Positions 8-61,925 are shown, numbered from the stretch's first letter. The stretch is DNA of 64,000 nt from Patescibacteria group bacterium (GCA_041649575.1 JBAZMW010000005.1:38734-102733); one strand, 5' to 3'. Made by a program: numbers and translations. The notes: generated from the letters alone by a model not told the origin.

Positions 8-1753
8 TTGATTAATCAGGCCAAGGCTTTTGATAGGCCGCTTTCCTATAAATCCGATGACACTTTGGTGACGGCTGACGGCAAGATCAAGGTTTGGTAT
101 CTGGAAAAAAAGGAAATGGTTAACGGCGAAGAAAAAATCACCAAACTTTATTATAATGTGGCTCAAAAAATTGTCTCAAACTTGAACACTGACGGCGCCT
201 ACGCTCAGTTCGTCGGACTACTGGGCAAGACTCCGCCATCAGACGGCACTTTGGGCGGCGACAATAAAACCGATATTTTTATCGCCACCGGCGCTCATGT
301 TCATCTGGCTGATTCTAAAGGCGGCTCGCCTTCCCAGGGCGTGAATGTGCCGGATAATGGCACAGGCAAAAGCAGCTATATCATCCTGCGAGAAAATTTA
401 AATGACAAATACTTGAGGACCACAACCGTTCATGAATTATTTCATGCTTTCCAGCGGGCGTTTGATTGCGTACTAACAGTTAAAAATTGGTGGTGGATTG
501 AAGGCACGGCCACTTGGTCAGAAGATATGATTTATCCAAACGACAATACTGAACAAGGTTATCTTGAAAGTTATATTAAAAACCCGGAGTTAAGCTTATT
601 TAGCAATGGTAAAAATTTTGAATATGGCGCTTATGTTTTCCCTTTTTTCTTGTCAAACACTTATGACCGGATGATCGTCACCAAAATCTTTGAAGGCTGC
701 ACTGGCGGCAAAAATCCGCTGGCTTCGGTGGATAAAACCATTGATGGCGGCTTCAAAAAAAATTGGAAAGAATTTACCCTTTTAAATTTCAATAAAAAAC
801 CAGTGGAAAAATACAAGGATTTTGACAAAAGCAAAAAATTCCCCAAAGACTCTACTCAAAGCGGTGCTAATGCCGACATGGCATTTTTATCTCCGGGAGA
901 AACTTCAGTCCCCAGTAAAGAGTTGCCGGCCTTGACTTCGCAAGTAATGGAAACTTATTTTGCGGAAAGAGCCGGAGTACGAAAAGCGGTCTTTAAAGAT
1001 CTTAAAAATTTCACCGGCAAAAACCCAAACGCCGCGATTAAAGCCATAATTTATCCAAGAAACAACGGCCAACCCTACACTGAGGATTGGACCGAAAAAG
1101 AAAGCCGCAGCTTTTGTTTTGACAAAGCCGATGAGGATTTTGATAGAATTATTCTGATATTCAGTAATGCCGACATGAAAAATAAAATAACCGAAAGCCA
1201 GATTAAGGTCAAAACCCAAGAATCGTGCTTTGAAATCAACCAAAGTGAAACCATGACTTCCAAACCGATATTTAGTGTTAATCCCGAATATAGAGGCACG
1301 GTAAAATACCAGGCCGAGGGCGAATTGGTCAAAGATTCGGTGCCGGCTAATGCCAAATATGCCTATTTAGGCAAATGGAAAGTCAAAGTGATTTATCGCG
1401 AAGATTGGCCGGGCCAAACTGCAATGTTCATCACCTCAAGTGCAATGTATTTTTCTTATGATCATTACCTGGAATTTGATTTAAGCGGGCAATCGGTCAT
1501 GAAAGACGGCACGTTTGAAGCCGTGACCAAGGAAGGCAAATTTGAATCTCCGGGCTGGACGATTCATAATGAAATTTCCGGTGACAGCGTCACTGTCCCG
1601 AAAAATGACACTTCTTGGGACGTGCCCAAAAAAGGCGTGATTTCGGAAATGACGGAAAACGGCGCAAAAATCAGTCTGCCCGATTTTGTCTTATACAACT
1701 CCGGCGGCTACCGCGAGTTGCCGCACCCGATTATTTTTGAGATCAAGAAATAA
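8..1753 (+). CDS. Putative zinc metallopeptidase (HEXXH motif), possibly 5-prime partial
   Basis: 581-aa ORF starting with TTG at the window edge. Contains VHELFHAFQ (a HExxH zinc-binding signature). No signal peptide is seen, consistent with N-terminal truncation at the window start. Confidence 0.45.
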   Translation: MINQAKAFDRPLSYKSDDTLVTADGKIKVWYLEKKEMVNGEEKITKLYYNVAQKIVSNLNTDGAYAQFVGLLGKTPPSDGTLGGDNKTDIFIATGAHVHLADSKGGSPSQGVNVPDNGTGKSSYIILRENLNDKYLRTTTVHELFHAFQRAFDCVLTVKNWWWIEGTATWSEDMIYPNDNTEQGYLESYIKNPELSLFSNGKNFEYGAYVFPFFLSNTYDRMIVTKIFEGCTGGKNPLASVDKTIDGGFKKNWKEFTLLNFNKKPVEKYKDFDKSKKFPKDSTQSGANADMAFLSPGETSVPSKELPALTSQVMETYFAERAGVRKAVFKDLKNFTGKNPNAAIKAIIYPRNNGQPYTEDWTEKESRSFCFDKADEDFDRIILIFSNADMKNKITESQIKVKTQESCFEINQSETMTSKPIFSVNPEYRGTVKYQAEGELVKDSVPANAKYAYLGKWKVKVIYREDWPGQTAMFITSSAMYFSYDHYLEFDLSGQSVMKDGTFEAVTKEGKFESPGWTIHNEISGDSVTVPKNDTSWDVPKKGVISEMTENGAKISLPDFVLYNSGGYRELPHPIIFEIKK

Positions 1754-7902: not shown

Positions 7903-8035
7903 ATATTTTGATTTATTTTATAATTGTCGGTTATGATTATTATAACATAATTATAACACAAGATAAAAATAACTGAAACTCGTCGGCGAGAGTTGCCGGG
8001 TTTTGAAATTAATAAAATTTTCTGCTGATATCAAA

Positions 8036-8066
8036 AAGTCAGCCCAAGCGGGCTGACTTTTTGGCT
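8036..8066. terminator. Bidirectional intrinsic terminator downstream of ftsH
   Basis: AAAAAGTCAGCCC-AAGC-GGGCTGACTTTTT: an 8-bp GC stem flanked by A and T runs. Confidence 0.55.
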
Positions 8067-8092
8067 ATTGATTTGGCAGGCGCTGGAAATTT

Positions 8093-9901
8093 TTAAGCTT
8101 TAAAGATGGCGGCAAATTCCTCGCTTTCAAGAGTTTCTTTTTCCAAAAGCTGGGTGACTATCTTTTCTAAATAATCTCTTTTTGCAATAATTATGCTTTC
8201 GGCCAGTTTGGCCGCTTCCTCGGTGAGGCGATGAATTTCTTTGTCGATTTCTTCGGCGCTTTTTTCCGAATAGTCGCGTTGCTCATGGAGCTCGCGTCCC
8301 AAAAAGATCAGCTCTTCTTTTTCGCCAAAAGTCCTTAGTCCTAATTTGTCGCTCATGCCATATTCGGCGATAAGTTTCTTGGCCAGCCGAGTGGCTTCAT
8401 GCAAATCGCTTTGGGCGCCGGTAGTGACTTCGCTGAAAACAATTTTTTCGGCAATCCGGCCGGCCAAAAGTACGGCCAGCTCTTCCAAAAATTCGGATTT
8501 GGAATGGAGTTTTCGGTCTTCGGAAGGCAGCTTCAGAGTGAAACCGGCGGCCAGGCCGCGGGCAATGATAGAAACTTTTCGAACCGGATCGGTGTGCGGC
8601 AATTCGTGAGCCACCAAAGCGTGGCCAGCTTCGTGGTAGGCGGTGATTTTTTTCTCGTTTTCGTTGAGGATGTGGCTTCTTCTTTCCGGGCCCAAGATAA
8701 TTTTGTCGATACTTTTTAAAATATTGTCAGAATTGATTTCTTTTTTGTTTTGCAGCGCAGTGAGAATGGCCGCTTCATTGAGCAGGTTGGACAAATCGGC
8801 GCCGGAAAAACCGGGAGTGCGTTCGGCCATCTTTCTTAGTTCTACTTCTTTGGCCAGCGGTTTTTCTCTGGCGTGGACTTTCAGAATCGCCTCGCGGTCG
8901 TTGATGTCGGGCATATCCAGAGTGACGCGGCGGTCAAAGCGGCCGGGGCGCAACAGGGCGGCGTCCAAGACATCGGGACGGTTGGTGGCGGCCATAATGA
9001 TAACGTTGGTGGCCGGGTCAAAGCCGTCCATTTCCACCAGTATTTGATTGAGGGTTTGCTCGCGTTCATCATGAGACCCGCCCAGCCCCGCTCCGCGCTG
9101 GCGGCCGACGGCGTCTATTTCATCGATAAAGATAATGCAAGGGGCGCTCTTTTTGGCGCGGCGGAACAAATCGCGGACACGAGAAGCGCCTACGCCGACA
9201 AACATCTCCACAAATTCGGAGCCGGAAATGCTGAAAAAAGGCACATTGGCTTCGCCGGCGACGGCGCGTGCTAGTAGGGTTTTACCGGTGCCGGGAGCGC
9301 CCAAAAGCAAAACTCCTTTGGGAATGCGCGCGCCTAGCGCTAGAAACTTTTTGGGATTTTTCAGAAAATCGACTACTTCCAGCAGTTCTTGCTTGGCCTC
9401 TTTGACTCCGGCCACGTCGACAAAAGTGATTTTATTCTTGTCGGGATTGAACTCCCGAGCGCCGCTTTGGCCGAAGCTCATGGCTTTGTTGTTGGCGCCC
9501 TGGGCCTGACGCATCATAAACCAGATAAAACCGACAAAGAAAATCAGAGGAATAATAAAAGGCAAAGTGGCCGACAACCAAAATTTCAGGCTGGTATCGC
9601 TTTTTATTTCAACAGAAACTTTTTCTAATTTTTTGGTGTCAATGTTGTAGTTTTTCAGCAGGGTGCTCAAACTGTCCAGGCTTTCTTTCTGCAGCGTTTC
9701 TTTTTGTTCGTCGGTGGTGACTATTTCCAGCTGGTTTTCTTTGACCACCACGGACTTGATTTGTTCCTGGTTGATTTGGTTGATAAATTCGCTGATATTG
9801 ATTTTTTTGGTTTTTTCGGTCGGCAGGCTGTACAAACTAAGCAGAGCCAACAGCGCCAGAAAGATCAGGGCGGCGATCAGTATTTGTTTGGTTATTTTCA
9901 T
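8093..9901 (-). CDS. ftsH: ATP-dependent zinc metalloprotease FtsH
   Basis: N-terminal TM, AAA module [31 protein letters not shown] zinc motif, 602 aa. Confidence 0.93.
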
Positions 9902-14871: not shown

Positions 14872-14928
14872 AAATAATTGGATTGCTATTAAAAGTAGCG
14901 TTTTAGGCGCTATTTTTTATTTTTTTAA

Positions 14929-14979
14929 GTTATCCACAGAAAAGCTATTGACCATAAATATTAAAAGAGTTAGTATAAT
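14929..14979 (+). promoter_or_regulatory. DnaA-box 11-mer GTTATCCACAG followed by a sigma70-like promoter (TTGACC-17-TAGTATAAT)
   Basis: TTATCCACA at 14930-14938. -35 TTGACC at 14948-14953, a 17-nt spacer, -10 TAGTAT(AAT) at 14971-14979. Identical architecture at 20088-20148. Confidence 0.45.
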
Positions 14980-14984
14980 TATAC

Positions 14985-15239
14985 GAACATTGGAAGGCCT
15001 AGTGAGAGAATCTAGGGAGTAGAAACTCTCACAGAAAAGGCGAGTGCCCTCTATGTACTCAACACCGCGGAACTTTCCAGGGTTCCAACCATCACGCATT
15101 GTACTGGACGAGAGGAGTACACAGGGTAACTCAACGTTGCAAACCGCTAGCTCACGACCCGAGCGCGCATCCGAAGCGTTTAGCAACGCACATCACTCCC
15201 ATCGCCGAGACCATCGCAAGACGGTCTCTTCCTTTTTTT
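14985..15239 (+). ncRNA. Candidate structured small RNA (about 250 nt), class unknown
   Basis: GC-rich segment with no credible ORF. It starts just after the promoter above and ends in a rho-independent terminator (GAGACCATCGCAAGACGGTCTC plus TTCCTTTTTTT at 15207-15239). Not matched by me to tmRNA, RNase P or SRP consensus. Confidence 0.3.
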
Positions 15240-19894: not shown

Positions 19895-20087
19895 GTTCTA
19901 TATCCTCCCGAAGCCATTTCAGGCCCCGTAGTTTAGGTCTTAATTGTCAACGTTCTTGGCTTTAAGTTGCTTTTTAAGCAACTATTAATATTAACATATT
20001 TATTTTTTTATGTCAAGTATTATTAAAGTAATATTATCTTTAAAATGCTGTTATAAATATTTTATTTTGTTAATATTTTATTTTTGA

Positions 20088-20148
20088 GTTATCCACAGCT
20101 ATTGATTTTATTGCTATTGACAAACTTATATTTTTTTGCTAGTATAAT
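20088..20148 (+). promoter_or_regulatory. DnaA-box 11-mer GTTATCCACAG followed by a sigma70-like promoter (TTGACA-17-TAGTATAAT)
   Basis: TTATCCACA at 20089-20097. TTGACA at 20117-20122, a 17-nt spacer, TAGTAT(AAT) at 20140-20148. Confidence 0.45.
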
Positions 20149-20154
20149 CATACT

Positions 20155-20330
20155 AAGTAGTGTACCTTGGCTTCATCTTTGGGCAGCTCTCTATAGTAGG
20201 GGTAGAGGGCAAGTAGTTGTGAGGCCGATTGCTGCGGCGATCGCGACCAAAATCGACAGGGCGGACCTAGTTCGCCCATCCCCTCATTCTGAAGTGGCTG
20301 GCACAGGTATGTGTTCAGCCCCTTTTTTGT
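20155..20330 (+). ncRNA. Candidate small RNA (about 175 nt) ending in a terminator, class unknown
   Basis: Begins after the promoter above. GC-rich with internal hairpins (for example GGGCG..CGCCC). Ends with GGCTGGCACAGGTATGTGTTCAGCC plus CCTTTTTT (20296-20328). The overlapping 94-aa ORF starts upstream of the promoter and is judged spurious. Confidence 0.25.
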
Positions 20331-31990: not shown

Positions 31991-32037
31991 TTATTTTTGT
32001 TTAAATTTAGATATTTAAAAATTTTTAATTTTTAGTA

Positions 32038-32876: not shown

Positions 32877-32949
32877 CTCCGGTGTACATCATGTAACACG
32901 GCTACCCTGTCACGTGGGGTTTTCCAACCTCGTGCCAGGCACGCCGCAC

Positions 32950-34990
32950 CATGGGGCGGGAGAGCAGCAATGTTCTCCCGCCAGCACTTATACATTATTA
33001 TCAATGCGTGCCGATGCCACCAAAGGCACGGCTTGGTCCGGTGGCGTCCGCTGCTGCAATGAGCTGCATGGGGTGGGAGTTCGCAAGAATTCCCGCCAAC
33101 TAATCAATGCGTGTTATAATGAAAATAATAAATATTGATTAGTACATTCTTCTGCGTGTGGTGTTGTTTCGCTCGGTTGCGTAGAGCGTCGCATCGCATG
33201 GTCGACCTCACCACGGGGCGAGGGTTCATCGCAATCCTCGCCGACTAATCAGTGATTATTACGGTTTAATAATTAGTGATCAGTTCTTTTTCACAGTCCT
33301 TGGTGCGGCTAAGCTCCGCTCCGCGCAGTCCGCTCTGCTGTTGTTTGCCAGGGGGCGGGAGAGCAGAGATGTTCTCCCGCCAGAGTGTATCACCCATTTT
33401 CCCAACTGGCCAAGGCGTGGCCCGGCGGTGTGGGCAATGGTTCGGCTCGGGGCGGGAGTCCATCGCGACTCCCGCCAGCTAATCAATGGTTGTTAAAAAA
33501 TTTAGTAATTATTGATTAGTTCGTTTATAAATCATGATGTGGCTGGCCGTCGCATGTCTTAGTTGCGTATCGTGTAGCCGCGCTTTCCCTGGGGCGAGGA
33601 TTGAAATACATCCTCGCCAGCTAATCAATGTCCATTAATTAATTAGTGGTTATTGATTAGTACCTTTTCACTTTGACTCAGCTAGCCGCCGTAGCGCGGA
33701 GTAAGCTGCAGTGGGGCTCACCCCAGCTATGTTGAGCTCGCCATGGGGCGGGGATGGGAAACTGTCTCCGCCAAAACTACTATCACCGTGTCGTTGGGTC
33801 GGCTTCGGCTACCTTTGATCCGGCGAACCGGCGCAGAGCGTGGGGCGGGGATTGTAACAAATCCCCGCCAACTAATCAGTGTGTATTATGCAAATAGTAA
33901 ATATCGATTAGCTCTTTCTGGTCCTAGCATTCTTGGCCGCCGTGGTGTGAGGCACTGCAAGACGGAGCGGAGCTGCGCACGGGGCGGGAGGTAGCAATAC
34001 TCTCCCGCCAATATCTACCAAACACTTCTCAATGGCAGGGCTTTCCGGCGCGTAGTTCAGCCCCGCCAGGCGAAGCGTTCTGTTGCAAGGGGCGGGGGTT
34101 CAGTGATGTTCTCCCGCCGTACCTTTTGCTTTTTAGGCCGCCCAGAGCAGTCAGCGGTAGAGCCTGGTCCTCTGTGGCAGTCCATGGGCGGGAGTCCTCA
34201 CCCGGCTCCCGCAACTATTTATTGGCGTTTGTTCCTCGGCGGAGCTACGCAGCCTGCCGCATAGTTCGGCCAGGTGTAGCGACGCACTCCCTGGGGCGGA
34301 GGTCGGTAGTCATGATCTCCGCCGACTAATCAGTGTTCATAATAATTTGTGATTAATGATTAGTTCATTTGTTAGACGGTTATGCTCAGGCGCAGTTCCG
34401 CGGAGCAGAGTATAGCTCGGCAGACACCGGCGTACTTGTCCATGGGGCGGAGACGGGAAACTGTTTCCGCCGAGCGATCAACCAGCTTCGGCTGTCAGAA
34501 AAGGATAATCGGTATGACTGGTGGTATGGGCATGCACAAACATGGCACGAGCGGTCATGTGCATAATGACCAGCATTTCACTGGCAAGAAGGGCGGCAAG
34601 CGTGCTGAGCGGAAAGGAAAGACGCACAAACAGCGTCGCCTGAACCGCGGGACGCACAAGAACAGGTTCAAGGAAGACTAGCTGACATTAGGCCATGGTG
34701 CCGCGGAGCAAACATCTCTCCGGCATTGCGGGCTGTGGCGCGGGGCGGAAATCGGCAACGGTTTCCGCCATTAATCAATGTTTATTAAGAATTTAGTAAT
34801 TATTGATTAGTTTTAGTTCTTTCGGCAAAGCTGAGTAAAGCTGCCTGTTGTCCGCCGACGCACGGGGCGGGAGTTCGCAAGAATTCCCGCCAAGCACATC
34901 TCATCTTTGGCGGCATCGTTGGGCGCAGTATGGCTCGGCATGCTTTGCCAGAGTGCGGCGCGGAACGGAGATCGGTAACGGTCTCCGTTA
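32950..34990 (+). repeat. Array of 16 compound hairpin repeat units (GC stem-loop GGCGGGAG-N9-14-CTCCCGCC, 7 of them followed by an AT-rich hairpin with CTAATCAATG/CATTGATTAG arms)
   Basis: GC hairpins start near 32953, 33070, 33215, 33352, 33449, 33591, 33745, 33842, 33981, 34089, 34186, 34294, 34444, 34742, 34864 and 34964. All are in the same orientation, preceded by CCAWGG/CACGG. Loops vary. Stems show compensatory changes. No ORF over 2.2 kb except a 55-aa candidate. Confidence 0.8.
34514..34681 (+). CDS. Candidate small basic His-rich protein (55 aa) inside the repeat array
   Basis: MTGGMGMHKHGTSGHVHNDQHFTGKKGGKRAERKGKTHKQRRLNRGTHKNRFKED. SD-like AAGGA upstream. Occupies the one long (about 300 nt) gap between hairpins. 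Confidence 0.3.
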   Translation: MTGGMGMHKHGTSGHVHNDQHFTGKKGGKRAERKGKTHKQRRLNRGTHKNRFKED

Positions 34991-35013
34991 TTATATTTTT
35001 AATAAATTTATTG

Positions 35014-35042
35014 TTGACAATTTTAATATTTTTTGTTAATAT
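35014..35042 (+). promoter_or_regulatory. Near-consensus sigma70 promoter upstream of the helicase gene
   Basis: TTGACA (35014-35019), a 17-nt AT-rich spacer, TAATAT (35037-35042). The leader carries a 9-bp hairpin CAGGCCAAA/TTTGGCCTG. Confidence 0.5.
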
Positions 35043-35150
35043 ATGGTGTCAGGCCAAAATCAATAACAAGCAGTTCTTTGACACTTTGGCCTGTGAGAAT
35101 ATAGGAAATTGAAGAAGCGAAGTAAAACCAGGCGAGAAGGAAGACAAATC

Positions 35151-36938: not shown

Positions 36939-36989
36939 TATCACGGACTGGCTCGCCATGGCTGCGCCTTGCTTGCCACTGCCTGCCGT

Positions 36990-37486
36990 CGTCCGCCAAG
37001 GGGCGGAGATCTGGTCCATCCGGGTCTCCGCCACATTCTTTGTTTTCAAACGTCGCTCGGCAACGTTGGGTCTTCAATGGCTTACCGCTGTTGCGCGTCG
37101 CAAGGGGCGAGGATGGTCTTTGACTAATTCTCGCCATTCTACACTTGTCAAAGAGATTCTTTGGCAGATGTGGTCTTTATGAGGTAGCGTATTCTTCAGT
37201 TGAGCTCAGTCTAGCTCGGTACAGCTGAGCGCCGCAGCCATTTCCAAGGGGCGGGGGTTGGGCTTGCCCAAATCTCCGCCAACGCTTATCTTCTCGGCAA
37301 TGCTTGGCACAGTATCCCAGTGTTGTGCGTCGCTGAGTTAGCCAAGGGATGGGACTGGTCAAACGGTCTCATCAAGATTATTTTTCTGGGCACGTCTCAG
37401 TATTCAATGGCCCGCTGCTGTTGAGTAGTGCAGAGCCCCCAGTCCAAGGGGCGGGAATCCATCGTGGTTCCCGTCGATTTTTTTTA
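36990..37486 (+). repeat. Second block of the GC-hairpin repeat family (5 copies) downstream of the helicase, ending in a T-run
   Basis: Copies near 37000, 37105, 37248, 37342 (variant GATGGGAC/GTCTCATC) and 37448. All are preceded by CCAAGGGG. The last is followed by TTTTTTTT. Confidence 0.7.
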
Positions 37487-37540
37487 TTTAAAATTAATTG
37501 CTAAATTCTAGGTTTTAAGCTAAAATATTCGTAAATCCCC

Positions 37541-39964: not shown

Positions 39965-40073
39965 GGGAATTGTAAAAAAGGTGTCCGCGAGTCGGGCGTC
40001 TTTTTTGTTTAATTAAAAATTGACTAAAACAGCAGAAATTGTTAAGATAAGAGCAATTTTTAAATTAAAAATT

Positions 40074-43000
40074 ATGAACAATATAATTGCTGACAAAGAA
40101 AAAGAAATTCAAAAATTTTGGCAAGATAATCAAATTTTTGAAAAGTCATTGGCGCAAACCAAAAACGGCCAGCGTTACAGTTTTTATGATGGCCCGCCGT
40201 TTGCCACCGGCACCCCGCATTACGGGCACCTAGTGGCCAGTCTTATGAAAGACGTGGTGCCGCGGTTTTGGACGATGCGCGGGCATTATGTGGAGCGGCG
40301 TTGGGGCTGGGATTGCCACGGACTGCCGATAGAAAACATGGTGGAGAAAGAGCTGGGTTTTAAGAATAAAAAAGACATTGTCGAATATGGCATTGCCAAC
40401 TTCAACGAGTACTGCCGCAGCAAAGTTTTGACGTATGTGGCGGAATGGAAAAAAACCATCAAACGATTCGGCCGCTGGGCAGACATGGAAAACCCCTACA
40501 AGACCATGGACGTGGATTATATGGAAAGTATTTGGTGGGTTTTCAGACAGTTGTGGGACAAAGGCTTAATTTATGAGGGCTACCGCTCAATGCATATTTG
40601 TCCCAGGTGCGAAACGACTCTAAGTCAGTCGGAAGTGAGTGAGGGCTATCGCGACGTTGAAGATCTTTCCGTCACTTGGAAATTCAAAGTGCTCCCACCC
40701 CCCCATTCCCCCCCTCGGGCAGAGGGGGAAGATATTCCCACCTATTTATTGGCCTGGACAACAGTGCCTTGGAGCACCCTGAGCACCATGGGCCTGGCCA
40801 TTGGCGCTGATTTTGATTATGTCAAAGCTAAAGTAAAAAACGAACACCTTATTTTTATCAAAGATAAACTGGAAGAAGTAATGGCCGGTGTTAGCAATTA
40901 TGAAATTATTGAAGAGTTTAAGGGCAGCAAGATGATTGGCTGGGAATATGAGCCGGTCAGCGATATTTTCAAAAATTTGCCGGAAGTGAAAAATAAAAAA
41001 AATGCCTATCATGTTTTTGCCGCCGATTATGTGGAAGCGACCGAGGGCACGGGCATCGTGACGATTAACGGCTCATATGGCGAGGTGGATTTGCTCTCCG
41101 CCCAGCAAAATGATTTGCCGGTACTGATGGATGTGAAGCTGGATGGCAGGTTTGCCGATTTTGCCGGTGCTTATGCCGGCCTGGATGTCAAAGACGCCCA
41201 GGTCAAGTTTGTGGCTGATATGGAAAAGAAGGGTTTGGTTTGGAGCAGTGAGAAATACACCCATTCCTATCCCCATTGCTGGCGCTGTGATACCCCGCTT
41301 TTAAATTATTCGACTTCCTCCTGGTTTGTCAAAGTGACAAAAATCAAAAACCAGGCGCTGGCTTTGGCCAAACAGATCAATTGGTCGCCAGCGCATATCA
41401 AGGAAGGCCGTTTTGGCAAGTGGCTCGAAGGCGCACGCGACTGGTCGATTAGTCGTCAGCGGTTTTGGGCGAGCGTGATTCCGATTTGGAAATGCGTTTG
41501 TGGCGAGATGAAGGTCTTGGGTTCGGTCGACGAGTTATATAAAAGCTCTAGCGATAACCCCCCGCAGATTACTAAGGTTATTTTTGTCAGGCACGGTGAA
41601 GCCGAAAACAATATTAGCCATATTAATTCCAACTCCTTGGATAAATATCCATTAACCAAAAAGGGCGCTGGACAAGTAAGTGAATCGGCGGCAAAAATAA
41701 AAGAAATTTTGGCAGAATCTTCGACAAAAGCCGTAATTTTCAGTTCTCCTGTCTTAAGAACTAAAGAAAGCGCGGAAATAATTTCTCATTATTTGGGATT
41801 GAAATATGAATTATCCGACGAAATTAAAGAGGTTGATTTTGGTATCGTGGAAGGAAAACAACTGGATGAATTAATGGATGAATATAATCCTTTGCCGGCG
41901 GATAAAAAGTGGAATTTTAAAAATGGTCAAACCGGAGAATCTCAAAAAGATATACAAGAACGGATGTATAAATGGTTCAAAAAAGTTTTAGAGGAAAATA
42001 AAAACAAAATAATAATCATAATTTCTCATGGCGACCCCCTTATGGCGTTGATAAATAAGATTAAAGGCAAGACAATAGAGGAACATGTTTTATCTTTAGA
42101 GAGCGATTCATATATTCAAAAAGGAGAAGTCAGAGTTGCTTATGTTATGAATGAAACTAAATTGGAAATAGATTTACATAAGCACAGCATCGATAGGGTG
42201 GTTTTAAAATGCGAGAAGTGCGGAAACGAGATGAGTCGTATTCCCGATGTTTTGGACACCTGGTTTGATAGCGGCTCTATGCCTTATGCGCAGCAGCACT
42301 ATCCGTTTGCCAATAAGGAAAAATTTGAAGCCGGCTTTCCGGCGCAGTTCATTGCCGAAGGCGTGGATCAGTGTCGCGCTTGGTTTTACTATCTGCACGT
42401 CAACGCCGCCGCCATTACAAACAAAATCGCCTACGAAAACGTCATTGCCAACGGTATTGTACTCGCCCAGGACGGTCGCAAAATGAGTAAAAAATTACAA
42501 AACTATCCGGAGCCAGAAGCGTTGATGGAAAAGTATGGCGCCGATGCCCTGCGTTTTTATTTATTATCCGCGCCGGTGATGGCGGCCGAGAATTTGAATT
42601 TCTCCGAAGCCGGAGTAAAAGAAGCGATGCAGAAAGTGGTGATGCTTTTAAATAACATTTTGAATTTTTATAAGTTGTATGCTGATGTCATCCCGACTGA
42701 AGCTGTGGGTCGAGTGGAAGGATCCCTTAGAAAAGAAAGGGATTCCTCCGTTACTTCGCCAGCTGGCGACTCCGGTCGGAATGACAATGTGCTGGATCAG
42801 TGGCTCTTGGCCAAATTAAATTTATTAATTAAAGAGGTGGCTGGAGCGATGGAGGCGTATGACCTGCCGCGGGCGGTGCGTCCGATCGCCGGATTTATAG
42901 ATGAATTTTCCACTTGGTGGCTAAGGCGTTCGCGTGACAGATTTAAGGGGGCAGACGAAAAAGATAAACAGCAAGCCCTGGCTGTTTTTGGGCATACGCT

Positions 43001-43670
43001 TTTAGAATTATCAAAAGTGATGGCGCCGTTTACTCCGTTTATCGCCGAGCAGGTTTATAAGGAAGTGGGCCCGTCCAGCCAGGGTGGCCGGGCAAGCGGT
43101 GAGCAGGAATCAGTGCATTTAGAAAAATGGCCTGAAGAATCAGAAATATTAATTAAGGAAGAGGTTATTAAACAAATGGAACAGGTGAGAAAAATCGTAG
43201 AATTAGGCTTGGCCAAACGGGCCGAAGCGGGAATTAAGATTCGGCAGCCGCTCGGAAACTTTCAATTTTCAATTTTCAATTTTCAAAATAACGCCGACCA
43301 GTATTTAAAAATTATCGCCGACGAACTTAATGTAAAAAAAGTTGTTTATAACAAAAATCTCGGCCAAGAAATAGAGTTAGACACGGAGATTACCAAGGAG
43401 CTGAAGCTGGAGGGCGTGGCGCGAGAATTGGTTCGCACTATTAATAATTTGCGCAGAGAGGCCGGGCTGACAATTCAAGATCAGATTAAAATTGACTGGC
43501 AATCGGAGGGCGAAACAATCAGGCAGGTTTTTGCGGTTGAAAGTTTAGTCGAGGAGTTGAAAAGGGCAACGATTACCAAGGAATTTTTAGACAAGGACAA
43601 CCAGGGCCAAGTGGCGGAAATCAATGGTGAAAAAATTAAGCTGGAAATAAACAGGACCATACCTTCTTAA
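40074..43670 (+). CDS. ileS: Isoleucine--tRNA ligase with an inserted histidine-phosphatase (PGAM-like) domain
   Basis: HIGH (PHYGHL) and KMSKKLQNYP motifs. About 230 extra residues between the two halves of the zinc knuckle (WKCVCGE ... KCEKCGNEM) carry RHGEAENN, SSPVLRTKESAE, EVDFGIVEG and ISHGDPL. Start placed at MNNIIADKEKE. Confidence 0.9.
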   Translation: MNNIIADKEKEIQKFWQDNQIFEKSLAQTKNGQRYSFYDGPPFATGTPHYGHLVASLMKDVVPRFWTMRGHYVERRWGWDCHGLPIENMVEKELGFKNKKDIVEYGIANFNEYCRSKVLTYVAEWKKTIKRFGRWADMENPYKTMDVDYMESIWWVFRQLWDKGLIYEGYRSMHICPRCETTLSQSEVSEGYRDVEDLSVTWKFKVLPPPHSPPRAEGEDIPTYLLAWTTVPWSTLSTMGLAIGADFDYVKAKVKNEHLIFIKDKLEEVMAGVSNYEIIEEFKGSKMIGWEYEPVSDIFKNLPEVKNKKNAYHVFAADYVEATEGTGIVTINGSYGEVDLLSAQQNDLPVLMDVKLDGRFADFAGAYAGLDVKDAQVKFVADMEKKGLVWSSEKYTHSYPHCWRCDTPLLNYSTSSWFVKVTKIKNQALALAKQINWSPAHIKEGRFGKWLEGARDWSISRQRFWASVIPIWKCVCGEMKVLGSVDELYKSSSDNPPQITKVIFVRHGEAENNISHINSNSLDKYPLTKKGAGQVSESAAKIKEILAESSTKAVIFSSPVLRTKESAEIISHYLGLKYELSDEIKEVDFGIVEGKQLDELMDEYNPLPADKKWNFKNGQTGESQKDIQERMYKWFKKVLEENKNKIIIIISHGDPLMALINKIKGKTIEEHVLSLESDSYIQKGEVRVAYVMNETKLEIDLHKHSIDRVVLKCEKCGNEMSRIPDVLDTWFDSGSMPYAQQHYPFANKEKFEAGFPAQFIAEGVDQCRAWFYYLHVNAAAITNKIAYENVIANGIVLAQDGRKMSKKLQNYPEPEALMEKYGADALRFYLLSAPVMAAENLNFSEAGVKEAMQKVVMLLNNILNFYKLYADVIPTEAVGRVEGSLRKERDSSVTSPAGDSGRNDNVLDQWLLAKLNLLIKEVAGAMEAYDLPRAVRPIAGFIDEFSTWWLRRSRDRFKGADEKDKQQALAVFGHTLLELSKVMAPFTPFIAEQVYKEVGPSSQGGRASGEQESVHLEKWPEESEILIKEEVIKQMEQVRKIVELGLAKRAEAGIKIRQPLGNFQFSIFNFQNNADQYLKIIADELNVKKVVYNKNLGQEIELDTEITKELKLEGVARELVRTINNLRREAGLTIQDQIKIDWQSEGETIRQVFAVESLVEELKRATITKEFLDKDNQGQVAEINGEKIKLEINRTIPS

Positions 43671-48607: not shown

Positions 48608-48700
48608 ACTGTGGATAACTTGGGTAAATTATTTTTTAATATAAAGGCATTTTTTGATTTTAATTGTTAATTTTTATCAATTTTTATCTAAATTTAGATA
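48608..48700. promoter_or_regulatory. rpoB upstream region with a DnaA-box 11-mer (minus strand) and a TATCTAAATTTAGATA palindrome
   Basis: TGTGGATAA at 48610-48618 (CTGTGGATAAC is the reverse complement of GTTATCCACAG). Perfect 16-bp palindrome at 48685-48700 followed by AAAAATAAATTAATT, also found at 56211-56245. Confidence 0.35.
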
Positions 48701-48972
48701 AAAAATAAATTAATTTGACTTTTTTATTTTTTTTACTTAAAACCGTTGACTTTTTAAGGTCGTTTCTGTTAATATAAAGTTAATGGTTTTTTAGTTCGAT
48801 TTTTTCTAAAAATCACTCTAACAAACCCTACTATTAGAAGTCATTGGGTTAATAACCTTCAGAAATAGTGGGTAAAAGCAAAAAACAAACCTAAATTCAC
48901 ATCTGACTCATTTCTAGTTTAATCAAAATCCGGCCGGGAACCGGAAAAAAACGAAAGAAATGAGGATTTTTT

Positions 48973-56213: not shown

Positions 56214-56320
56214 ATTTAAATTTAGATAAAAATAATTTAATTAATAAGACTTTAAGAGACATTAGAGATATTCAGTGATATGTATTACTTATAATTTGAC
56301 ATTAATATACAATTTTTGTT

Positions 56321-61480: not shown

Positions 61481-61730
61481 ATTTTGTCAATTGAGAACAA
61501 TTAAGTATATAAATACTACAAATAGTAATTATTCTTTATTTAATTATCTAAATTAGGTATTTATATATAAATTTAATACCTGTTGATAACTTTTTATTGA
61601 CAATTGAGAACATAATCTTTTATAATTAACTTAAATACCAACAGCTAAAAATTAGCATAAAATGAGTAAAAACAGATTGTTTTATAAGCCATAATATTTT
61701 TTTATTCTGGCTTTTTATTTTTAAATAATA

Positions 61731-61925
61731 ATGAGCAATCGGATTCTGACAATTGAAGAAGTGGCCAAAACCATGAAGGTCAGTCTAAAAACTGTTTACC
61801 GCTGGATTAGTGCCGGCCAGTTGCCGGCTGCCAAAATTGGCTATAAAACCTACCGAGTTTTTGAAGGCGATTTAATTAAATTTTTAAGGCGCCATATGTT
61901 TTCTTCGGCGCGCCGTCTAAGATAG
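61731..61925 (+). CDS. Excisionase-family HTH DNA-binding protein (paralog of 56321)
   Basis: IEEVAKTMKVSLKTVYRWISAGQLP. Heads a second surface-protein gene. Confidence 0.6.
   Translation: MSNRILTIEEVAKTMKVSLKTVYRWISAGQLPAAKIGYKTYRVFEGDLIKFLRRHMFSSARRLR

Follow-up and report, generated by a model that had tools for sequence, protein, structure and literature searches.

High-affinity DnaA boxes probably act as promoter-associated cis-regulatory sites in a lineage of Patescibacteria, a reading that we hold with a probability of roughly 0.58. It emerges from the analysis of the window, i.e. the whole 64,000-nucleotide stretch of DNA from a Patescibacteria group bacterium, and of related loci, in which boxes are kept at three of the four sites recognised here (sites 2, 3 and 4). 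DnaA would bind single strong boxes, so that the transcription of a few units would follow the concentration or nucleotide state of DnaA; as targets we propose two candidate small RNAs, RNA1 and RNA2, the rpoBC operon and the gene of a small HTH_17 regulator. We infer that DnaA is the protein bound, and equally which way it regulates and where transcription starts. An earlier, sequence-only reading of the same DNA had suggested DnaA-dependent control of small RNAs; its appeal to DnaA gains support from boxes kept at the promoters of the RNA2 orthologue, of rpoB and of the HTH_17 gene, while its restriction to small RNAs falls away, the candidate targets being wider.

Occurrence and placement of the DnaA boxes

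There are exactly three copies of the 11-mer GTTATCCACAG in the window: 14929-14939(+), 20088-20098(+) and 48609-48619(-). The sequence-only reading had recognised a perfect DnaA box within this 11-mer at the same three places, with the third start one base off (48608 instead of 48609), and its chance count of about 0.03 for an 11-mer in 64 kb is arithmetically right (2 x 64000 / 4^11). Indeed, the 11-mer was absent from 100 out of 100 dinucleotide-preserving shuffles of the window. The core 9-mer, TTATCCACA, which is the consensus DnaA box, is found in the window at these three places only, with 0.49 copies expected and at least three copies reached in 2 of 100 shuffles; it is matched at 9/9 positions by the three sites and by six further ones in the related loci. 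Identity among the three exact sites extends one base beyond the 11-mer, yielding the common 12-mer AGTTATCCACAG (Table 1). A fourth copy, AGTTATCAACAG, carries a single mismatch, agreeing with TTATCCACA at 8/9 positions, and all four copies in the window are intergenic.

Table 1. Coordinates of the boxes, promoters and genes considered in the window.
Feature	Position	Strand	Details	Basis
Site 1, perfect DnaA box in AGTTATCCACAG	14928..14939	+	9-mer 14930-14938	motif scan
RNA1 promoter	14948..14976	+	-35 TTGACC 14948-14953, 17-nt spacer, -10 TAGTAT 14971-14976	promoter scan
RNA1, candidate stand-alone small RNA	14983..15239	+	~255 nt; GC-rich; terminator hairpin 15207-15228, then T-run	
Site 2, perfect DnaA box in AGTTATCCACAG	20087..20098	+	9-mer 20089-20097	motif scan
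RNA2 promoter	20117..20145	+	-35 TTGACA, 17-nt spacer, -10 TAGTAT	promoter scan
RNA2, candidate small RNA	20152..20328	+	~175 nt; terminator 20297-20328	
Site 3, perfect DnaA box in AGTTATCCACAG	48609..48620	-	inverted relative to rpoB	motif scan
rpoBC promoter	48746..48775	+	TTGACT-18-TAATAT	conserved in four genomes
Site 4, DnaA box with one mismatch, AGTTATCAACAG	61580..61591	-	flanks as at the other sites	motif scan
HTH_17 gene promoter	61597..61626	+	TTGACA-18-TATAAT, 12/12 consensus matches	promoter scan
Small excisionase/MerR-like HTH_17 DNA-binding protein	61731..61925	+	64 aa; downstream of site 4	domain match

Relatives were reached via homologues of ribosomal protein S1 and of rpoB, the nearest named ones being Candidatus Buchananbacteria and Falkowbacteria. 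Over the 257 kb formed by the window and nine related loci, the perfect TTATCCACA is intergenic in nine out of nine cases, in DNA of which 12.4% is intergenic (0.124^9, p ~7e-9); two "coding" labels in the placement output are ORF-finder artefacts that the gene calls of the collection contradict. Boxes with one mismatch are devoid of such intergenic enrichment over the same 257 kb (11/72, p = 0.27), and in the genomes compared only specific one-mismatch variants are conserved. AGTTATCCACAG is a genuine cis-element under selection.

The role of DnaA as a transcription factor is well established, and sequence outside the 9-mer affects its affinity, as noted in PMC11317965. The strongest DnaA sites detected by ChIP-seq in E. 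coli (oriC, datA, purH and polA) read gag/aagTTATCCACAg/a/t (PMC11317965), with gagTTATCCACAg at oriC and datA, gagTTATCCACAa at purH and aagTTATCCACAt at polA (Stringer et al. 2024, PMC11317965). The window sites are flanked as a/gAG-box-G, equal to the flanks of these strongest in vivo sites, and across the clade a G precedes seven and follows six of the nine boxes. As to the protein itself, Patescibacteria encode DnaA and DnaN (PMC12102498) and DnaA-box-like repeats have been reported at a CPR origin (PMC4736985), while a dnaA gene was not found in the window or in the related loci fetched. Of 32 consensus single boxes in E. coli, only 13 are bound in vivo, and DnaA usually requires a pair 2-3 bp apart (PMC11317965). 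Such a double box is present in the relative L130, where TTATCCATAggTTATCCACA includes a partner matching 8/9 at 2 bp (background p ~0.001). Partner half-sites elsewhere match at 2-5/9 positions, no better than AT-rich background; statistical support for the double-box architecture is confined to L130. From its sequence and flanks, AGTTATCCACAG is most probably a high-affinity DnaA box of the R1/R4 type, used for transcription-linked functions.

The box upstream of rpoB

The third site was held to lie between murE and rpoB, which is indeed the case, the upstream gene being assigned to the murE subfamily of Mur ligases (342 bits vs a cut-off of 257). Site 3 is located 16 nt past the murE stop codon, 127 nt before the rpoB -35 element and 355 nt before the rpoB ATG, and with 127 nt to the core promoter it is too far for simple activation or repression.

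Conservation of sites 3 and 4 was followed in three relatives, L129, L130 and L131, whose rpoB is 85%, 83% and 82% identical to that of the window and whose rpoB upstream regions align well; a further locus, L132, obtained like L130 from Hainich groundwater, is identical to it over the 500 nt compared upstream of rpoB and is not counted as an independent genome. In the window, L129 and L130, a box of unchanged orientation precedes the rpoB ATG by 340-376 nt; the 12-mer is identical in the first two, L130 has TTATCCATAggTTATCCACA, and in L131 this position holds only a degenerate sequence. The gene preceding rpoB is not the same in these genomes. Where the window has murE, L129 has an unknown gene, whose stop codon is 7 nt ahead of the box, and L130 a divergent radical-SAM gene. 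At rpoB, DnaA would occupy a distal upstream site directly after the preceding gene, from where it may exert a remote effect or obstruct read-through; the latter option is raised because a search of the + strand from murE to the rpoB promoter revealed no intrinsic terminator.

We regard it as unlikely, though deserving serious weight, that the boxes bind DnaA without regulating their neighbours, serving as chromosomal titration sites that buffer free DnaA or, at site 3, as a roadblock into rpoBC. Box-bound DnaA can block transcribing RNA polymerase, as at asnC/mioC and guaB in E. coli. The short distances of the rpoB boxes to the stop codons ahead of them in the window and L129, together with the missing terminator, are in line with such a roadblock, and scattered high-affinity boxes are known to titrate DnaA in E. 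coli (PMC12371093). Titration has however no need for a fixed position relative to promoters, yet the boxes stay at orthologous promoter-proximal places as neighbouring sequence and genes change. As for a roadblock, the divergent orientation of the gene upstream of rpoB in L130 leaves no read-through to be blocked, and both site 1 and the box in the relative L002 are already preceded by intrinsic terminators. Promoter-linked regulation by DnaA accordingly remains our preferred reading.

A separate sequence element was observed in the same region. The AT-rich near-palindrome (C/T)TAAATTTAGATAAAAA is present in the window at 48686-48700, 56214-56228 and 32001-32012 and in L126 at 8176-8192; it recurs tens of bases upstream of -35 elements and is kept in the four-genome alignment of the rpoB upstream region. 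An UP-like element or a further operator are conceivable roles for the near-palindrome, for which the window shows no statistical enrichment. Similarly, CTAAATTTAG, which is present upstream of several promoters, displays no statistical enrichment in the window.

The box at the HTH_17 promoter

At site 4, the box precedes the -35 element of the HTH_17 gene promoter by 7 nt. Its sequence TGTTGATAAC is invariant in four out of four genomes (window, L129, L130 and L131), as is the adjoining TTGACAATTGAG; in L129 the HTH_17 ORF is present though uncalled. In L130 and L131 the -10 element of the HTH_17 promoter is immediately followed by another box, TTATCCACA or TTATTCACA. With one box abutting the -35 and, in these two relatives, another following the -10, the arrangement would be a repressor-like layout. 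Boxes located after a -10 or in a 5' UTR were recovered in L130, L131 and L126: L131 has a perfect box in the 5' UTR of a second HTH_17 gene, and the sole perfect box of L126 follows the -10 of a FadL-like gene and precedes its ribosome-binding site, again in the 5' UTR. No perfect box was found in L003, L004, L127 and L128, in 17-21 kb each.

Site 4 is also where a different protein deserves consideration, since the mismatch at a conserved box position is itself invariant. The motif may be the operator of another factor, e.g. one of the small HTH_17 proteins of excisionase/BldC-like type whose genes adjoin two of the sites, and only resemble a DnaA box. Congruent with this, the invariant site 4 variant TTATCAACA suggests selection for something besides the DnaA consensus, it is accompanied by a second conserved element, TTGACAATTGAG(A/G)ACA, HTH_17 promoters are flanked by boxes or box variants in four genomes, and the protein has a weak resemblance to the BldC family in NCBIfam (28.9 bits vs a cut-off of 77). 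Nevertheless, nine sites agree fully with the near-universal DnaA consensus, most of them with the best E. coli flanks, which would have to be coincidence, and no direct link connects HTH_17 proteins to the motif. We consider such a factor improbable, and favour DnaA as the protein that would recognise these boxes.

The same promoter harbours a further repeated element: CAATTGAGAACA occurs twice upstream of the HTH_17 gene, at 61487-61498 and 61601-61612, and the copy overlapping the -35 (TTGACAATTGAG) is conserved in four genomes (window, L129, L130 and L131). It is a candidate operator of the HTH_17 protein itself.

The promoters of RNA1 and RNA2

Sites 1 and 2 each precede a promoter of the form TTGAC(C/A)-17 nt-TAGTAT, in agreement with the shared architecture first described for these two copies. 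The spacing between box and promoter, originally taken to be identical, is not: the gap from the 9-mer to the -35 amounts to 9 nt at site 1 and 19 nt at site 2, next to 20 nt in L002 and 7 nt at site 4, with site 3 as an exception (127 nt). Similarly, the 11-mer is separated from CTATTGAC by 5 nt at site 1 and by 15 nt at site 2, where CTATTGAT immediately abuts the box. In the window, CTATTGAC is found at 14945 and 20114 only, and exact TAGTATAAT at 14971 and 20140 only. TATAAT, at 20 nt from the -35, is spaced too widely for a normal promoter. The -10 in use is probably TAGTAT at 17 nt, in agreement with TATGAT at 17 nt in the L002 orthologue.

Site 1 is situated between the terminator of an RNHCP gene (14891-14917) and the RNA1 promoter. 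With predicted transcription starts near 14983 for RNA1 and near 20152 for RNA2, the box centres are at about -49 and -59, respectively. The two boxes would hence sit upstream of the -35 on one face of the DNA, offset by a single helical turn, a position typical of an upstream activator or modulator.

Around the start sites themselves, the stretch TAGTATAATNATAC is common to the RNA1 and RNA2 promoters at 13 of 14 positions (window 14971-14984 and 20140-20153), spanning the -10, the discriminator and the predicted start, while the -35/-10 spacers and the RNA bodies are unrelated. Over this stretch, the likeness between the RNA1 and RNA2 promoters exceeds that between RNA2 and its L002 orthologue; it may reflect constraints common around the start site, or gene conversion inside the genome.

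The sequence-only reading had also put forward a duplicated mobile promoter cassette, and the 11-mer could in principle have been spread by such a cassette or as the end of a dispersed repeat (MITE, IS). Its appeal lies in the 12-mer, CTATTGAC and 13/14 positions of TAGTATAATNATAC being common to the RNA1 and RNA2 promoters, which are closer to each other than the RNA2 promoter is to its orthologue in L002. However, when five sites were aligned with ~80 nt on each side, no similarity extended beyond the 12-mer and the core promoter elements, the distance from box to promoter is 10 nt longer at site 2 than at site 1, and the 17-nt spacers bear no relation to each other. The expected cryptic homology downstream of the two promoters did not materialise, the RNA bodies being dissimilar, terminal repeats are absent, and no longer dispersed repeat around the 11-mer was found within the window and the fetched loci. 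Furthermore, CTATTGAC is not over-represented, with 7 occurrences in 257 kb vs 7.8 expected, and relatives carry it in promoters unrelated to these, the S1 promoter of L126 among them, while sites 2, 3 and 4 are orthologously conserved, unlike a recent mobile insertion. Spread as a cassette is thus very improbable.

Hardly credible is, finally, that the sites are chance occurrences or part of a replication origin: the shuffles that reached three copies of the 9-mer by itself favour chance, but the 11-mer is missing from every shuffle, the perfect boxes are all intergenic and three sites are conserved, and for an origin the cumulative GC skew climbs monotonically through the window, dnaA and dnaN were not found among its annotated ORFs and the boxes are single, 5-28 kb apart. 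The window was rejected as oriC, having no box cluster, no unwinding element, no dnaA/dnaN neighbourhood and no skew switch.

RNA1 and RNA2 as candidate small RNAs

Both promoters had been proposed to drive GC-rich transcripts, and the stretches that follow them are indeed GC-rich, at ~50-60% vs 12-25% in the flanks, with a hairpin and T-run at their ends. Folding yielded z = -3.1 for RNA1 and z = -1.7 for RNA2. Downstream of RNA1 lies the 3' end of a convergent gene, and downstream of RNA2 a separate strong promoter with a methyltransferase and histidine-kinase operon. Because of this downstream context, RNA1 and RNA2 look like stand-alone small RNA genes rather than leaders.

Neither RNA matched Rfam 15 when the whole window was searched at the gathering threshold, and at E <= 10 the RNA1, RNA2 and L002 RNA regions returned only noise or terminator-like matches; assignments as RNase P, SRP, 6S, tmRNA or riboswitch were discarded, as neither is recognisable as such by Rfam. 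ARAGORN detected a tRNA-His alone in the window. No homologue of RNA1 was found by blastn or nhmmer in all fetched CPR loci, and sequence comparison revealed no similarity between the bodies of RNA1 and RNA2.

RNA2, on the other hand, has a counterpart in L002, a relative whose S1 is 78% identical to that of the window and which contains one perfect box in 21 kb. There, the box is positioned just after a terminator, in the layout TTATCCACAG-N19-TTGACA-N17-TATGAT, with 20 nt from the 9-mer to the -35 and the box centre near -60, and it precedes a GC-rich RNA of roughly 210 nt with its own terminator. The L002 RNA and RNA2 have a 14-mer and a collinear 11-mer in common; the longest common substring is 14 nt, while 13 nt was reached in 0/5000 shuffles. 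Their 5' ends are alike as well (TAGTAGTnTA..TTGG), whereas the 19-20 nt between box and -35 have diverged. The box upstream of the predicted promoter of the RNA2 orthologue is, judging from these two loci, a phylogenetic footprint, because it was kept while the spacer to the -35 diverged. Moreover, the L002 RNA was found via the box and its likeness to RNA2 seen only afterwards, so that the two observations support each other. Conservation of site 2 refers to one orthologue, as L125 represents the same organism as L002. A search of genome contigs with the neighbouring MMPL protein found no relatives; homologues of this protein are at most 52% identical, too distant for synteny.

The RNA2 core consists of GTGAGGCCGAT-hairpin loop-GATCGCGACCAAA and is collinear in the L002 RNA. 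Together, RNA2 and the L002 RNA look like an undescribed small RNA family of the clade with two members, as far as the two sequences allow such a grouping. When genomes were scanned with the core motif, the four low-GC loci examined among the matches listed corresponded to a coding motif of the DNA polymerase I 5'-nuclease (EADDxIAT), with no CPR locus among them; a stricter motif run against metagenome contigs recovered the L002 organism alone, again as L125, and the viral contigs searched gave no match.

At the RNA level, the core can be written as GUGAGGCCGAU-(hairpin, variable tip)-GAUCGCGACCAAA, located at 20218-20251 in the window for RNA2 and at 667-697(-) in L002, and a 5' UUGG could pair with the CCAA. 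Outside the core the two differ, L002 carrying an insertion of ~50 nt. Another small RNA unit, running from promoter to terminator, was noted in L126 at 7945-8127(-) (~155 nt, fold z = -2.2); it precedes a methyltransferase gene and is oriented divergently to the FadL-like gene with the DnaA box in its 5' UTR. In position it looked analogous to RNA2, but the core motif is absent from it and homology to RNA2 is not demonstrable.

Other features of the window and its relatives

Two stretches of 2.2 kb and 0.6 kb without a convincing ORF (window 32877-35108 and 36939-37540, +) flank a DEAD/Helicase_C_2 helicase gene. They comprise ~15 diverged repeat units at an irregular spacing of ~100-250 nt, each with a GC-rich hairpin, GGGGCGGGAG-loop-CTCCCGCC, and in six of these the hairpin is followed by CTAATCA(A/G)TG, ~20 AT-rich nt and an inverted TATTGATTAG. 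The repeats have no Rfam match at E <= 1, are absent from the nine related loci and are not CRISPR-like; they could constitute an array of small RNA units.

An isoleucyl-tRNA synthetase-like gene (window 40020-43670, +; 1216 aa) has a His_Phos_1 (histidine-phosphatase) domain inserted at residues 520-688, between two tRNA-synt_1 stretches, and the same architecture is present in L129 (1-3321) and L130 (1-476). In L130 (1890-2771), and equally in L132, a bAvd-like gene adjoins a reverse-transcriptase gene upstream of ruvA, a pair that is absent from the window and looks like a diversity-generating retroelement.

Discussion

Regulation by DnaA of a small set of promoters may be extended to a broader proposal, in which DnaA would be a principal transcription regulator of the clade, coupling rpoBC, two lineage-specific small RNAs and small HTH regulators to the replication cycle, with RNA2 as a new family of DnaA-controlled small RNAs. 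The small HTH regulators would then head large surface-protein operons, in a clade that is genome-reduced and regulator-poor. We deem this proposal tentative and, on present sequences, rather doubtful.

The Patescibacteria, or CPR, are uncultured organisms with tiny genomes and few recognisable regulators, and their transcription regulation is almost unstudied; in the literature searched, we found no paper naming both DnaA boxes and Patescibacteria. With conserved boxes linked to promoters, a CPR lineage would gain a first regulon hypothesis that is concrete and inexpensive to test; through the box kept ahead of rpoBC, the capacity for transcription would be tied to the potential to initiate replication. 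Furthermore, two candidate small RNA genes are flagged, RNA2 with a conserved core. As DnaA is already established as a transcription factor in model bacteria, the new aspects are the lineage and the targets, not the principle.

DnaA is a global transcription factor in Bacillus subtilis, with sda, dnaA, ywlC and others as targets, and in Caulobacter crescentus. To our knowledge, neither of these DnaA regulons has been reported to include rpoBC or small RNA genes. The likeness to the present case lies in a replication initiator that couples other functions to replication status and, for B. subtilis, in boxes upstream of promoters of small regulators, sda encoding a small checkpoint protein. In contrast, clusters of several boxes are used in B. 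subtilis while single boxes are seen here, and the targets differ. For Caulobacter, DnaA is presented as a protein of dual function (PMC3193534).

Within E. coli, the R1 and R4 boxes of oriC have the extended sequence gagTTATCCACAg in common with the boxes described here, whereas the window is without the cluster, the unwinding element, the dnaA/dnaN neighbourhood and the skew switch of an origin. The datA and DARS loci and the dispersed titration boxes (PMC12371093) likewise comprise high-affinity boxes outside oriC with an identical extended sequence. However, datA and DARS combine clustered boxes with IHF sites and have defined roles in the hydrolysis or regeneration of DnaA-ATP, while the boxes here are isolated and held at fixed positions relative to promoters.

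Close parallels are also found in the DnaA-regulated promoters of E. coli (dnaA, nrdAB, polA, purH, rpoH and mioC; PMC11317965), which exhibit the perfect TTATCCACA with (g/a)agTTATCCACAg flanks and boxes close to sigma-70-type promoters, and whose double boxes with 2-bp spacing are mirrored in L130. In both cases the set of targets is compact and includes genes of RNA metabolism or transcription, rne and rpoH there and rpoBC here. Unlike the E. coli regulon, the one outlined here is a candidate built mostly on single boxes without a recognisable partner, and with two stand-alone small RNA genes among its putative targets in an uncultured Patescibacterium.
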